A stretch of DNA of 64,000 nucleotides from a bacterium (GTDB taxonomy: Bacteria > Patescibacteriota > Minisyncoccia > Phycocordibacterales > UBA5272), in contig JAIXVU010000002.1 of NCBI GenBank assembly GCA_027482685.1, positions 19,352-83,351 on the forward strand. The letters run 5' to 3'. Under the pieces are notes generated by a model. It ran no database searches and was not told the DNA's origin. It saw only the letters and a program-made list of their open reading frames with translations. Within the stretch, counting starts at the first letter, position 1; the number at the start of each line of letters is the position of its first letter. The position numbers and the translations under genes were made by a program. Shown here in pieces: positions 27,645 through 61,908 of this stretch.

Positions 27645-27812
27645 AGGGGAATAATTAATTAAGGTTAGTATAACATTTTATGTAAGAGAGTATGACCCCT
27701 ACGGGTCGCTACGTTTTACTACGCTCCTTGAGAACCCACGGTTCTCAACGTTCGTTGGTACACTCACTGCTCTCCTCTACGGAAAACTCTCGTTTTCCGA
27801 CCCTTTCCAATT

Positions 27813-27877
27813 CCGTGGGGTCATGAAATTAAAAGCACCATCATAATGATGGTGCTTTTAATTTCATGACCCCACGG
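27813..27877. repeat. perfect about 32-bp palindrome overlapping the tRNA-Glu 3' acceptor end (trailer hairpin / terminator)
   Basis: ccgtggggtcatgaaattaaaagcaccatcat / atgatggtgcttttaatttcatgaccccacgg; the right arm is the tRNA 3' strand. Confidence 0.7.
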
Positions 27878-27938
27878 AGAGTCGAACTCCGCTTACCGGC
27901 ATGAAAAGCCGGTGTCCTAACCGATAGACGATGGGGCC
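27867..27938 (-). tRNA. tRNA-Glu (anticodon TTC)
   Basis: Reverse complement GGCCCCATCGTCTATCGGTTAGGACACCGGCTTTTCATGCCGGTAAGCGGAGTTCGACTCTCCGTGGGGTCA folds as a cloverleaf (7-bp acceptor, anticodon loop TTTTCAT, T-loop TTCGACT); no encoded CCA. Confidence 0.8.
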
Positions 27939-28207
27939 CTATAATTCGCTTTGCGAATTCGGGCGACTATTTGCAATTAGCCCAAGCAAATAGTTTAGCA
28001 GTCCGTTGCTACTTTATAGACTAAAGTGCAGATACAATACTACCACATATTTTGTTATTTTGGAAGAGGTTTAGCGTTGCCTTTGTCTCTACTCTCATGT
28101 ATTATGTGTCAGGTGGTTCTTTTGTTTCTTAATACAATAACTAGATACGGTATAAGGTAATTCTTATCTATCTAGTAACATGGTCGCCTGTAAAATGTCG
28201 ACCAGAA

Positions 28208-28283
28208 GGGCGGTTAGCTCAGTTGGTAGAGCGCCACATTGACGTTGTGGATGTCAGAGGTTCGACTCCTCTATCGCCCACCA
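28208..28283 (+). tRNA. tRNA-Val (anticodon GAC), CCA encoded
   Basis: GGGCGGTTAGCTCAGTTGGTAGAGCGCCACATTGACGTTGTGGATGTCAGAGGTTCGACTCCTCTATCGCCCACCA; canonical cloverleaf, anticodon loop TTGACGT. Confidence 0.85.
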
Positions 28284-28339
28284 AAATTAAAATCTCACAT
28301 ATCGTACGGTATGTGAGATTTTAATTTTGGTGGGCGATA
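28272..28339. repeat. about 30-bp near-perfect palindrome that includes the tRNA-Val 3' end (tatcgcccacca...tggtgggcgata)
   Basis: tatcgcccaccaaaattaaaatctcacata / tatgtgagattttaattttggtgggcgata. Confidence 0.7.
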
Positions 28340-28376
28340 AGAAAGACGCTTGGGCGTCTTTCGTGAGGAGTCGAAC
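28327..28376 (+). repeat. direct repeat copy 1 (about 50 nt) flanking a GC-rich insert downstream of tRNA-Val
   Basis: TTGGtGGGCGATAAgAAAGACGCTTgGGCGTCTTTcgTGAGgAGTcGAA versus copy 2 at 29258-29307 (TTGGcGGGCGATAAaAAAGACGCTTaGGCGTCTTTttTGAGtAGTtGAA), about 85 % identity. Confidence 0.6.
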
Positions 28377-28596
28377 GAAAAAGCGGTCTACGAAAGTGAA
28401 CTGCAAAAATTGGATACAGTATTTTTGCGGTTCATTTTTGTCGCTTTTTATCGGGGTCGCGACTAGGAGATTTTGTTTGAGTCCAATGGAAGAAAAAGAA
28501 AATCCCTAGTGGTGACCGACTCCGCCTCAATTGCCTCGTTTCCGTGAAGGAGTCAGCTTTACTTTATACAAGATGATTGATATATAAGGTTTTAAA

Positions 28597-28640
28597 TTGA
28601 CATTGACAAAATATGAATTTAGTGTACACTATATATGTTA
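28597..28640 (+). promoter_or_regulatory. sigma70-like promoter candidate (tandem TTGACA ... TATATAT)
   Basis: ttgacattgacaaaatatgaatttagtgtacactatatat upstream of the GC-rich ORF at 28681. Confidence 0.3.
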
Positions 28641-28680
28641 GCTCATGATGAACCAGTTGCAGTTCTTTTGAAAGGTCTTT

Positions 28681-29041
28681 ATGACTCGCAGCAGCTTCGA
28701 TGATGTGCACCTTGAAACAGATGCACATTTCAACGATCTTGGGCCACAAGGAGAAAAGGCTCTCGGTTTGGTGGTAGGGTTGATGCCTCACTTCGGTGCC
28801 GGCCACCCTGACCTTCTCCGCAAGAGAATGCTCTTTCGAACTCTTGGTGCTCAGTCTGGCCACTCAAGATCCCTTGAGGGGTGTTCTGACAAGCCATGAC
28901 CCGAAGTCACTTCCTTCGAAGGCGCTCTACTTCCTCGGCCTTTATAAGAGGGCTGTGGAATCGAATGTCGATGACATCGGAGTGCTGTGCGAAATAGTGA
29001 CCAAGGACGACGATAGGCTTCGCACTTATTTGTTTCGCTAG
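28681..29041 (+). pseudogene. GC-rich frameshifted ORF pair (foreign gene remnant)
   Basis: Two overlapping + ORFs in different frames (28681-28899, 28796-29041) within a high-GC segment; no recognisable domain; competing antisense ORFs (GC artefacts). Confidence 0.3.
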
Positions 29042-29186
29042 GCAACAAGTTGGTGCTTCATTGAGCAGTGCTTTACGGGCAGGTCGAAAGACCTGCTCGT
29101 TTTCTATTTCAAAACCTTCCCCCCTTTTCAACTACTCGCTAAACTTAATAATATACTCTAAAAATATATTTAATTTCTCATAATCT

Positions 29187-29216
29187 GGTTCGATGTGTAT
29201 CCTCGATTCCCCACCA
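29187..29216 (+). repeat. degenerate partial copy of the tRNA-Val 3' half (T-arm/acceptor)
   Basis: GGTTCGAtgtgtatCCTCgaTtCCCCACCA compared with tRNA-Val GGTTCGACTCCTCTATCGCCCACCA. Precedes direct repeat copy 2. Confidence 0.45.
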
Positions 29217-29257
29217 GATACAAAATGGCGAAGTCGTATGACTTCGAATTTTTTTAT

Positions 29258-29307
29258 TTGGCGGGCGATAAAAAAGACGCTTAGGCGTCTTTTTTGAGTA
29301 GTTGAAT
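29258..29307 (+). repeat. direct repeat copy 2 (see 28327-28376) including a terminator hairpin aaaagacgcttaggcgtctttttt
   Basis: See copy 1. Confidence 0.6.
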
Positions 29308-29350
29308 AAGAGACTCCTTTGTTATTAATTACAAGTGATATAATTAACAT

Positions 29351-30093: not shown

Positions 30094-30120
30094 ACACGCG
30101 ACCCCGAAGGGGTCGCGTGT
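30094..30120. terminator. bidirectional GC hairpin (acacgcgaccc-cgaa-gggtcgcgtgt)
   Basis: Perfect 11-bp stem between convergent genes. Confidence 0.55.
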
Positions 30121-36239: not shown

Positions 36240-36545
36240 GGTTAATAGTTAATGGTTAATAGTGAAGATATTGATGAGTATAGCATGCATGATAAAGTAC
36301 TAAGAAATATATATACAGTAAACGTTTGTTGATAAAATAAAAATAGAGGAGGTGGCATGGACTGATTGGAGAAGGAAAAAATAATTAAAAGCCGCATTGT
36401 TTGATGCGGCTTTTAATTATAAATATTTAGAAAATTATTTTAGATACGAGGCGAAACAAATTTTTATGAGGAGTTGTACTTAGATGTACAGTGACGAAAT
36501 AAAAATTTGTTTTAACGAAGTAGATGAAGTAATTTTATATTTTTT

Positions 36546-61494: not shown

Positions 61495-61565
61495 GGGCCT
61501 ATAGTTTAGTGGCAGAACAACAGTCTCCAAAACTGTTGGTCGAGGTTCGATTCCTCGTGGGCCCG
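61495..61565 (+). tRNA. tRNA-Trp (anticodon CCA)
   Basis: GGGCCTATAGTTTAGTGGCAGAACAACAGTCTCCAAAACTGTTGGTCGAGGTTCGATTCCTCGTGGGCCCG; anticodon loop CTCCAAA; 7-bp acceptor stem including a T-G pair. Confidence 0.8.
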
Positions 61566-61620
61566 CAAAAAAGTAAAAGCAGTATCATTTGATACTGCTT
61601 TTACTTTTTTGCGGGCCCAC
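61557..61620. repeat. 31-bp perfect palindrome that includes the tRNA-Trp 3' end (gtgggcccgcaaaaaagtaaaagcagtatca / tgatactgcttttacttttttgcgggcccac)
   Basis: Verified arm by arm. Confidence 0.7.
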
Positions 61621-61908
61621 AGAAAGTGAACTGCTTCACTTTCGTGAGGAATCGAATAGGGGTCGCGAAATTGCTTCGAGCGAAGCGAGGCAGATTTGTG
61701 ACCGATTTCTCGTTTATTTCATTCTCGGTGACCGAACTTCCTCGGGGGGGGTTAGCTATGTTTTTCTAGCAAGAAAAACGAGCGAGCCGTGGCCTGCGAG
61801 TTTCTTGAGCGACGGCGAAAGAAAACTTGTAGGAGATTCCTCGTGAACTTCTGTTATCATTAGTTATCAACACGGCGCTTTTCTCATACACCTATATACT
61901 ACTACTAT

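Follow-up and report, generated by a model that had tools for sequence, protein, structure and literature searches.

A family of hairpin-rich non-coding units behind tRNA and tmRNA genes of Patescibacteria: candidate miniature integrative elements

tRNA genes and repeated blocks in the window

The DNA analysed here (the window) is a 64-kb stretch of contig JAIXVU010000002.1 from a patescibacterial genome, with a mean GC content of 0.40 and three tRNA genes (Glu, Val and Trp). An earlier note, made from the sequence alone, had reported short blocks shared by the regions downstream of tRNA-Val and tRNA-Trp, and degenerate copies of tRNA 3' ends behind all three genes. It had suggested a family of scars at tRNA 3' ends or a conserved tRNA-linked non-coding RNA, in at least two and likely three copies. 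Our analysis supports that suggestion: the regions downstream of the Val, Trp and Glu genes have one common layout, a fossil fourth unit lies in the same window, and 31 loci carry the unit elsewhere. The tRNA genes lie as follows.

27867..27938, minus strand: tRNA-Glu(TTC), CCA end not encoded (ARAGORN; Rfam)
28208..28283, plus strand: tRNA-Val(GAC) (ARAGORN; Rfam tRNA, 67.7 bits)
61495..61566, plus strand: tRNA-Trp(CCA), CCA end not encoded (ARAGORN; Rfam)

The four blocks common to the Val and Trp regions all lie on the tRNA strand and have no other exact occurrence in the 64 kb. CTTTCGTGAGGARTCGAA is found at 28358-28375 and 61639-61656, and GAAAGTGAACTGC (28392 and 61622), GGGGTCGCGA (28453 and 61659) and GGTGACCGA (28511 and 61727) each have two exact copies in the window, one per locus. 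With up to three mismatches allowed, CTTTCGTGAGGARTCGAA has just two matches in the window against 0.06 expected, a number reached in 0 of 100 shuffles. The blocks are thus present where they had been placed and exceed chance in the shuffle test, with one correction: position 28358 at the Val locus is the start of CTTT, and CGTGAGGA itself begins at 28362. The Val region is also richer in GC than the window, as had been noted (0.475 at 28200-28399).

The copies of tRNA ends were assessed with 1000 dinucleotide shuffles of the 300 nucleotides (nt) 3' of each tRNA gene. The longest exact inverted run is 12 nt for Val (0/1000 shuffles), 12 nt for Glu (0/1000) and 11 nt for Trp (2/1000). Among the direct copies, the only significant exact run is the 11-nt GATTCCTCGTG behind tRNA-Trp (61835-61845; 2/1000), and the 7-nt runs of Val (128/1000) and Glu (140/1000) are not significant; in this window the direct copies are weaker than the inverted ones. 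The sequence ATGACCCCTACGGGTC (27691-27706), read in the earlier note as a copy of the tRNA-Glu 3' end, is indeed that end, CCGTGGGGTCAT, plus one inserted base. All three regions fold far better than their shuffles, with z-scores of -14, -12.5 and -9.9. Chance-level blocks and a lack of further copies had been named as outcomes that would speak against the idea, and neither came true. The repeated blocks behind the three tRNAs are real and no artefact, and form one local instance of an unannotated family.

Anatomy of the units

Three features go beyond the first reading: an antisense copy of the tRNA 3' end, a tandem-array structure, and the identity of the blocks as the conserved feet of hairpins, in which GGGGTCGCGA pairs with GTGACC (hairpin C, hpC) and AGAAAG pairs with CTTTC (hairpin A, hpA). 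Read on the tRNA strand, a complete unit starts with a first direct copy (DR1) that extends from the T loop to the discriminator plus C. This is followed by a hairpin, usually a terminator, by an antisense copy of DR1 split by hpA, by one or two further hairpins (hpD and hpC, or another pair in some lineages), and by the second direct copy (DR2). The units of the window comprise the following parts.

28260-28283, plus strand: Val DR1 GTTCGACTCCTCTATCGCCCACCA, the 3' part of tRNA-Val and first direct copy
28284..28327, plus strand: Val perfect AT-rich hairpin containing A- and T-tracts, with the shape of a bidirectional terminator and a stem that runs into the tRNA 3' end (sequence, minimum-free-energy fold)
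28328..28339, plus strand: Val anti-acceptor TGGTGGGCGATA, exact reverse complement of 28272-28283 (0/1000 shuffles)
28340..28364, plus strand: Val hpA, AGAAAG-ACGC-TTGG-GCGT-CTTTCGT, with a conserved foot and a top that covaries family-wide (covariance model R1, 66.3 bits)
28365..28376, plus strand: Val anti-T GAGGAGTCGAAC, reverse complement of the T loop and T-stem 3' strand (28260-28271)
28377..28452, plus strand: hpB, an extra nested hairpin of the Val copy only, which holds GAAAGTGAACTGC, the top of the Trp hpA (fold)
28453..28519, plus strand: Val hpC, foot GGTCGC(G) pairing with (T)GGTGACC via G.U, variable top CTAGGAG..CCCTAG
28517..28538, plus strand: Val degenerate direct copy of the tRNA-Val 3' part, CGACTCCGCCTCAATTGCCTCG (from sequence; 7 nt exact, not significant alone)
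Within 61495..61566, plus strand: Trp DR1 GTTCGATTCCTCGTGGGCCCGC, the 3' part of tRNA-Trp
61567..61610, plus strand: Trp perfect AT-rich terminator-like hairpin
61611-61656, plus strand: Trp anti-acceptor GCGGGCCCAC (61611-61620), hpA (61621-61645) and anti-T GAGGAATCGAA (61646-61656) (covariance model R1, 64.5 bits)
61659..61705, plus strand: Trp hpC, GGTCGCGAA pairing with TTTGTGACC via two G.U, top TTGCTTCG..CGAGGCAG also in loci L014 and L018
61703..61751, plus strand: two degenerate direct copies of the T part of tRNA-Trp, CGATTTCTCG and GGTGACCGAACTTCCTCGGGGGGGG
61752..61845, plus strand: second, decayed Trp unit with an hpD-like hairpin TATGTTTTT..AAAAACGAGCGAGCC, an hpC-like hairpin and the 11-nt direct copy at 61835-61845 (alignment)
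27691..27866, minus strand: divergent Glu unit (sequence, fold, inverted run)
27824-27866, minus strand: perfect hairpin of the Glu unit
27813-27823, minus strand: Glu anti-acceptor (11 nt, TGACCCCACGG)
27781-27798, minus strand: hpA-like hairpin of the Glu unit, which has one more hairpin and the direct copy at 27691-27706
29187..29308, plus strand: fossil unit (blastn, 71.6% over 109 nt to 28267-28375, E=1e-12; covariance model R1, 51.4 bits)
29187-29216, plus strand: tRNA 3' fragment GGTTCGAT..CGATTCCCCACCA of the fossil unit
29229-29246, plus strand: terminator hairpin of the fossil unit
29259-29308, plus strand: TGGCGGGCGATA, decayed hpA and GAGTAGTTGAA of the fossil unit

In the Val and Trp units hpA is a 25-nt hairpin of the form AGAAAG-N12-CTTTCGT, after which comes the inverted T part GAGGARTCGAA. 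Since the inverted anti-acceptor, hpA and the inverted T part stand in that order, the antisense copy is divided precisely where T stem and acceptor stem meet, into 12 and 12 nt in Val and into 10 and 11 nt in Trp. The search with a covariance model that the earlier note had proposed recovers the Val, Trp and fossil units at the scores listed; the Glu unit is too diverged and was not found by this model. Within the window the Val and Trp units are 61% alike, and the decay of DR2 marks all three tRNA-linked copies (Val, Trp, Glu) as old; the segment 28517-28538 is read as a tRNA copy because younger members of the family carry exact repeats at that position. The tRNA-sense strand of the window units folds about 25 kcal/mol better than its complement, with many G.U pairs.

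The first hairpin of each window unit has the makings of an intrinsic terminator, a stable hairpin with a T-tract right after the gene; a simple terminator scan did not list these hairpins because it requires at least 3 G-C pairs. Terminator character explains neither hpA, hpC nor the repeats. Two other hairpins of the window touch on this point. The terminator hairpin AATTAAAAGCCGCATTG..GCGGCTTTTAATT at 36379-36418 resembles the AT-rich hairpins that follow tRNA-Trp and tRNA-Glu (77-81% similarity), which suggests either a common terminator style or, possibly, a common small palindromic element. A palindrome at 30096-30118, ACGCGACCCC...GGGGTCGCGT, between the convergent pirin gene and the next gene, contains GGGGTCGCG, as the hpC foot does; an unrelated terminator is the probable reading.

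Distribution of the family

The family was sought in one genome per species for 185,579 GTDB species, with the pattern AGAAAG-N10-14-CTTTCGTGAGGARTCGAA, and in JGI metagenomes with a near-identical pattern in which one further base was left free. The species genomes gave 14 loci (numbered, like all others, with an L), every one of them from Patescibacteria (Saccharibacteria, Kaiser-, Nomura-, Taylor- and Campbellbacteria, Minisyncoccia and unclassified bins). In 11 of the 14 the match lies 23-100 nt 3' of a tRNA gene on the same strand and in one it lies behind the gene of a transfer-messenger RNA (tmRNA); in the remaining two (L013, L017) an island lies between a tRNA-like end and the unit. 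Seventeen loci came from the metagenomes, 14 directly behind a tRNA gene and a fifteenth (L073) in an array behind tRNA-Glu. The host tRNAs include Gly(TCC), Val, Trp, Ala, Leu (three anticodons), Arg (two anticodons), Met and Glu, and strong copies by model R1 occur only behind tRNA or tmRNA genes or within arrays there. At 7468-7955 of L010, in a Saccharibacteria genome, the unit stands behind a tmRNA gene that adjoins smpB.

No Rfam 15 family but tRNA and tmRNA reaches its gathering threshold in the units of the window and of the family loci, and scans by E-value gave weak matches only, to hairpin-shaped families such as miRNA precursors; the Infernal/Rfam scan proposed in the earlier note therefore returned tRNA and tmRNA and no family that fits the unit. 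Inspection by eye, with no dedicated tool, found no ribozyme cores (hammerhead, twister, pistol, hatchet), no group II domain V and no C/D or H/ACA features, and full-text searches of the literature returned no description of these units. Several other candidates were tried and set aside. An intron-containing or split tRNA on the opposite strand lacks a 5' acceptor or T-stem partner on manual reading, and a retroviral-type primer-binding site is contradicted both by the complement, which fits the gene with its spacer included and, in Trp and Glu, does not fit the mature CCA end, and by hpA, which interrupts that complement. As for a viral link, the hpA pattern has no match in IMG/VR, and the 38 matches of an hpC pattern are all chance, GC-rich and without hairpin or tRNA context. 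The units are an unannotated family of non-coding, hairpin-rich sequences of about 130-250 nt, placed right after tRNA and tmRNA genes and, in the scans made, restricted to Patescibacteria.

Direct repeats, covariation, arrays and empty sites

Exact direct repeats of 14-27 nt were found at L011, L012, L013, L015, L016, L019, L020, L022 and L073. In all 14 measured loci the repeats begin at G53-G57 of the T loop (-1 to +3 relative to T54), and they end anywhere from 7 nt inside the tRNA 3' end to 5 nt past it. The 23-nt direct copy of L013 is present three times in identical form. At L011 and L020 the last copy bears CCA and the first does not, as would follow from the last copy being the original tRNA end. 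A different, simpler kind of tRNA-end duplication is found at 6061-6300 of L019, where tRNA-Leu(CAA) is followed after about 50 nt by an exact 44-nt repeat that spans its variable arm, its T arm, the acceptor strand and CCA.

The anti-acceptor varies by locus and tracks the host tRNA, and GAGGAATCGAA and the hpA foot are constant. The four top pairs of hpA covary, with 95% of cells paired (38-54% in slid controls) and 36 double-change cells against 12 in shuffles, none of 500 of which reaches 36. The right-hand part occurs in at least two versions, one consisting of hpD (GGAGCCATGTTTT..AAAACAGRCGAGCC) and hpC, the other of a long hairpin and, after it, a small one, GAAnn-TGTAA-nnTTC, in which the T-loop TTC takes part. 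Across the family the sense strand folds better than the antisense strand in 15 of 20 cases, with 61 G.U pairs in sense and 58 in antisense. Strand asymmetry was rejected as proof of an RNA, being strong in the window and weak family-wide, and mutational skew could cause it.

Perfect head-to-tail arrays occur at L069 (3 x 136 nt, 200-521) and L061 (2 x 176 nt, 283-508), and at L012 and L068 an assembly gap or contig end lies immediately past DR2. Comparison of L012 with L065 places breakpoints between different units at TTCGATT. Empty sites were also found in relatives. L004 has the same tRNA-Trp with CCA and a plain terminator (neighbouring protein 42% identical), and L064 has an orthologous tRNA-Glu with CCA and a plain terminator, though a Val unit is present; L064 is the same locus as L014, in which a homolog of the window's RlmH (73% identical) lies about 2 kb from tRNA-Val. 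The unit is absent behind most of the other tRNAs in the loci retrieved.

The core of the Trp unit is strongly conserved. Between the window and L018 (GAPDH 79% identical), tRNA-Trp is 94% identical and the 101 nt from anti-acceptor to hpC are 91% identical, against 65% for the terminator loop, 53% upstream of the tRNA and 40% after DR2, and hpA shows two compensatory pair changes. In a related lineage, represented by L014 and L018 from separate metagenome-assembled genomes, the Val unit and the Trp unit are 92% alike; near-identical copies of these two loci (L064 and L063) come from one metagenome assembly. This likeness and the conservation of the core indicate that the family is spreading or homogenising, or is under selection, or both. 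Logan contigs of the window's organism end within the Trp palindrome (61586) and near the G8 run (61757), and these breaks at the Trp locus are represented by loci L001-L003 and L005-L008.

Neighbouring genes and islands

Pfam scans covered 103 open reading frames (ORFs) within 3 kb of units and the 57 ORFs of the window, and for each set the 25 most frequent or best-scoring families were considered. Both sets show housekeeping genes. Between the Val unit and the fossil unit lies one small gene.

28603..29110, plus strand: small gene with a promoter-like site (28603-28630) and a terminator-like site (29075-29100)
28681-29041, plus strand: frameshifted ORF, split over two frames (28681-28899 and 28796-29041)

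A protein of 124 amino acids, P0004, spans both reading frames with 73% identity; its function is not assigned and it occurs only in Logan assemblies. The ORF is a frameshifted pseudogene or carries a sequencing error, and the GC-rich stretch 28640-29110, considered as a non-coding RNA, is instead this frameshifted small protein gene.

A second single gene was seen at 4092-5200 of L073, where an ORF of 195 amino acids with two HxT motifs lies between two units behind tRNA-Glu and, much like a gene cassette, begins 7 nt past the direct repeat. The motifs suggest a putative 2H phosphoesterase or LigT-like RNA ligase. Larger insertions occur as well. L013 (1-5750) has a 5.6-kb island at the junction of tRNA-like end and unit. 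This island includes a large serine recombinase gene that is frameshifted, XRE regulator genes duplicated within inverted repeats of 502 nt, and part of a restriction-modification methylase. L062 and L072 have similar island ends, and in these three loci the end is a GC-rich, conserved stretch that contains a T-loop-like motif (..GGTTCGAGCAAAGG..CTGCAC), of which L017 has a related variant (..GGTTCGCGCAAAG..CAGCAC).

Proposed nature of the units

We tentatively propose, with somewhat less than even confidence, that the units are miniature, attP-sized integrative elements that lack an integrase and target the T loop of tRNA genes. A unit would recombine site-specifically in the T-loop region of a tRNA gene, with a recombinase supplied in trans. 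The insertion would bring a replacement tRNA 3' end and a terminator and move the old 3' end downstream, and this displacement would account for the direct repeats, the tandem arrays and the fossil copies. As a single strand, the sense and antisense copies may fold into a mimic of the duplex target, in which hpA would mark the T/acceptor junction and make the two strands unequal. Single-strand exchange near the T loop would then give the order tRNA 5' part, DR1, loop, antisense copy, body, DR2, which is exactly the order of parts observed. As in known genomic islands, an intact tRNA or tmRNA gene is accompanied by a displaced 3' fragment that lies downstream in the same orientation, and in all 14 loci measured the block of identity begins at one of the recognised crossover subsites; no integrase is carried on the element, for which 130-250 nt are too short.

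Several observations weigh against this proposal. No excised or circular form was seen, and the IMG/VR viral contigs have no real match to either pattern. The Pfam families considered for the 103 neighbouring and 57 window ORFs include no integrase, transposase, reverse transcriptase or recurrent recombinase, and the trans-acting enzyme is hypothetical because none stands out among these ORFs. Ordinary double-stranded integrase chemistry, moreover, leaves the antisense copy and the covarying hairpins without a role. The terminal tRNA-like copies of the L069 and L061 arrays match one another and not the host tRNA, a pattern more readily explained by insertion after ...CAC or by unequal crossing-over than by repeated integration at the T loop. 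On the crossover site itself, the exact repeats and the TTCGATT breakpoints favour the T loop, and these two arrays favour a position after ...CAC. The Trp core matches the tRNA itself in conservation (91% against 94%), with flanks at 40-53%, which suggests a function kept by the host or a very recent spread, and the sense-strand folding bias is strong in the window and weak across the family.

A bolder version of the proposal, which we regard as unlikely, would make the units a Patescibacteria-wide class of integrase-less mobile elements or integron-like cassettes that find their target by base pairing in place of protein contacts, or else a new class of RNAs that mimic tRNA ends, each paired to its own tRNA. 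In the base-pairing variant, the antisense and sense copies of a specific tRNA 3' end would mimic the duplex of the gene, hpA would mark the T/acceptor junction and set the choice of strand, and a host recombinase would insert the unit, for instance from taken-up single-stranded DNA, into the T loop, sometimes with one gene along.

The conservation of the core bears equally on another explanation, a structured RNA with a function for the host, which is a serious rival although on the unlikely side. The unit would be transcribed with the tRNA as its 3' trailer or as an operon spacer, and would act in the formation or control of the tRNA 3' end or be released as a tRNA-like minihelix RNA, in which the anti-acceptor and anti-T would pair with DR2 and hpA would replace the D and anticodon domain. 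This is consistent with a Trp core more conserved than GAPDH, with the compensatory changes in hpA and in the hairpin tops, and with the better folding and many G.U pairs of the sense strand in the window. Some units within tRNA operons have no terminator (L015/L071 between two tRNA-Arg genes, L022 between tRNA-Leu and tRNA-Lys) and therefore must be transcribed, and the full read-through transcript is predicted to fold as a tRNA with a large insertion in the T loop, with hpA placed exactly at the point where, in a real tRNA, positions 8-48 depart from the stack of acceptor and T stems. In most units, however, a canonical-looking terminator separates the tRNA from the other modules. Many tRNAs at these loci, and orthologs in relatives, are without the unit, which is thus no general requirement, and selfish repeats typically form perfect tandem arrays and leave fossil copies. 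DR2 also decays in the Saccharibacteria copies, so that a minihelix is not maintained there, strand asymmetry is weak family-wide and no Rfam family fits.

The units could instead be ordinary scars, that is, attL and attR arms left by deleted large islands or prophages and inactive in themselves. This idea agrees with the signature of direct tRNA fragments and with a size like that of attP, as it does with the larger islands at the same sites in L013, L062 and L072, the related end in L017 and the single genes between units (window 28681-29041 and the 195-residue ORF of L073). Yet independent decay should not yield the same covarying hairpins in the same order behind eight tRNA species and tmRNA in several lineages of the candidate phyla radiation, and cores that are 91-92% identical and perfect multi-copy arrays of the small unit alone are unexpected, all of which makes scars an improbable explanation. 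A local, non-mobile origin without insertion or function, in which template switching extends terminator palindromes into the tRNA 3' end and slippage makes the duplicates, is very unlikely: native terminators do contain the complement of tRNA ends (GCACCA/TGGTGC at the L019 tRNA-Leu, TCCACCA/TGGTGGA in the last copy of L020), and template-switch correction in near-palindromes, an established mechanism, may keep arms perfectly complementary, but this cannot account for the same hpA foot, hpD and hpC behind unrelated tRNAs and tmRNA in distant lineages, and the 92% identity of Val and Trp units points to common descent of hpA, hpD and hpC.

Comparison with known systems

For elements that insert into tRNA genes, as we propose for the units, the nearest relatives are the islands and prophages with tyrosine integrases that carry the Islander signature (Hudson, Lau and Williams 2015; PMC4383910). 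These reside in tRNA or tmRNA genes and leave an intact gene and a displaced 3' fragment; their crossover subsites are the anticodon loop, the T loop and the T/acceptor junction, tmRNA is a favoured target, and attP measures about 250 bp (PMC4383910). The units resemble them in the direct 3' fragment from T loop start to tRNA end, the tmRNA target, the tandem arrays, the supply of a new tRNA 3' end and a size near that of attP. Unlike these islands, the units measure 130-250 nt instead of more than 2 kb, have no integrase and usually no gene, carry an antisense copy of the target and conserved covarying hairpins, and are found here in Patescibacteria only. They are closest to tRNA-targeting integrative elements, and it is the lack of an integrase and the size that keep them out of that class.

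Recombination sites that fold from a single strand are represented by the attP(+) hairpin of phage CTX, which is used by XerCD, and by the attC sites of integrons. By analogy, the units may be likened to imperfect palindromes with conserved outer boxes (TTCGATTCCTC / GAGGAATCGAA), variable inner boxes (acceptor and anti-acceptor) and a variable central loop, in which a one-sided extra element (hpA) would make the strands unequal and the hairpin would reproduce the duplex target; the single ORFs between units at a few loci likewise recall integron cassettes. Phage CTX enters dif by way of XerCD and a single-stranded attP that folds from a pair of inverted target-like sites; the units contain an inverted copy of the target that forms a hairpin. 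In contrast to these systems, the target is a tRNA gene and not dif or attI, and no IntI or phage genes lie nearby. The boxes of the units, GTTCGAT...ATCGAAC, are the reverse of RYYYAAC...GTTRRRY, with C56 departing from GTTRRRY, so that the R-box order of attC is lacking; the arrays start at a tRNA gene, and no tyrosine recombinase is among the families considered near them.

Like miniature inverted-repeat transposable elements (MITEs) and REPINs, the units are small, non-coding, hairpin-rich and multi-copy, would need an enzyme in trans and can act as terminators. They differ from MITEs and REPINs in being tied to tRNA and tmRNA 3' ends, in an inverted repeat that is the host tRNA's own sequence, and in target-derived repeats of 14-27 nt in place of short target-site duplications of fixed length, and the strong R1 copies are not dispersed in intergenic DNA. 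With circularly permuted tmRNA the units share the order T arm, acceptor 3' strand, loop, acceptor 5'-like strand, and the tmRNA_permuted model gives weak cmscan scores of 15.2, 12.9 and 9.6 bits (gathering score 47). In contrast to permuted tmRNA, the acceptor identity of the units follows the host tRNA, and no tag frame was noted by eye.

Significance

The units fall below the 2-kb size cut-off of the Islander island finder. They break short-read (de Bruijn) assemblies at tRNA loci and create false partial-tRNA signals. Carrying a copy of their own target in both orientations, they point to folding or base pairing as the way in which the target is recognised. Should they be mobile, no smaller integrative element directed at tRNA genes would be known, and if they act as RNAs, they would make up a new tRNA-linked RNA class. 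For the Patescibacteria, a very large and little-understood group with tiny genomes, a conserved, unannotated structured element linked to many of the tRNA and tmRNA genes would be a new genome feature.

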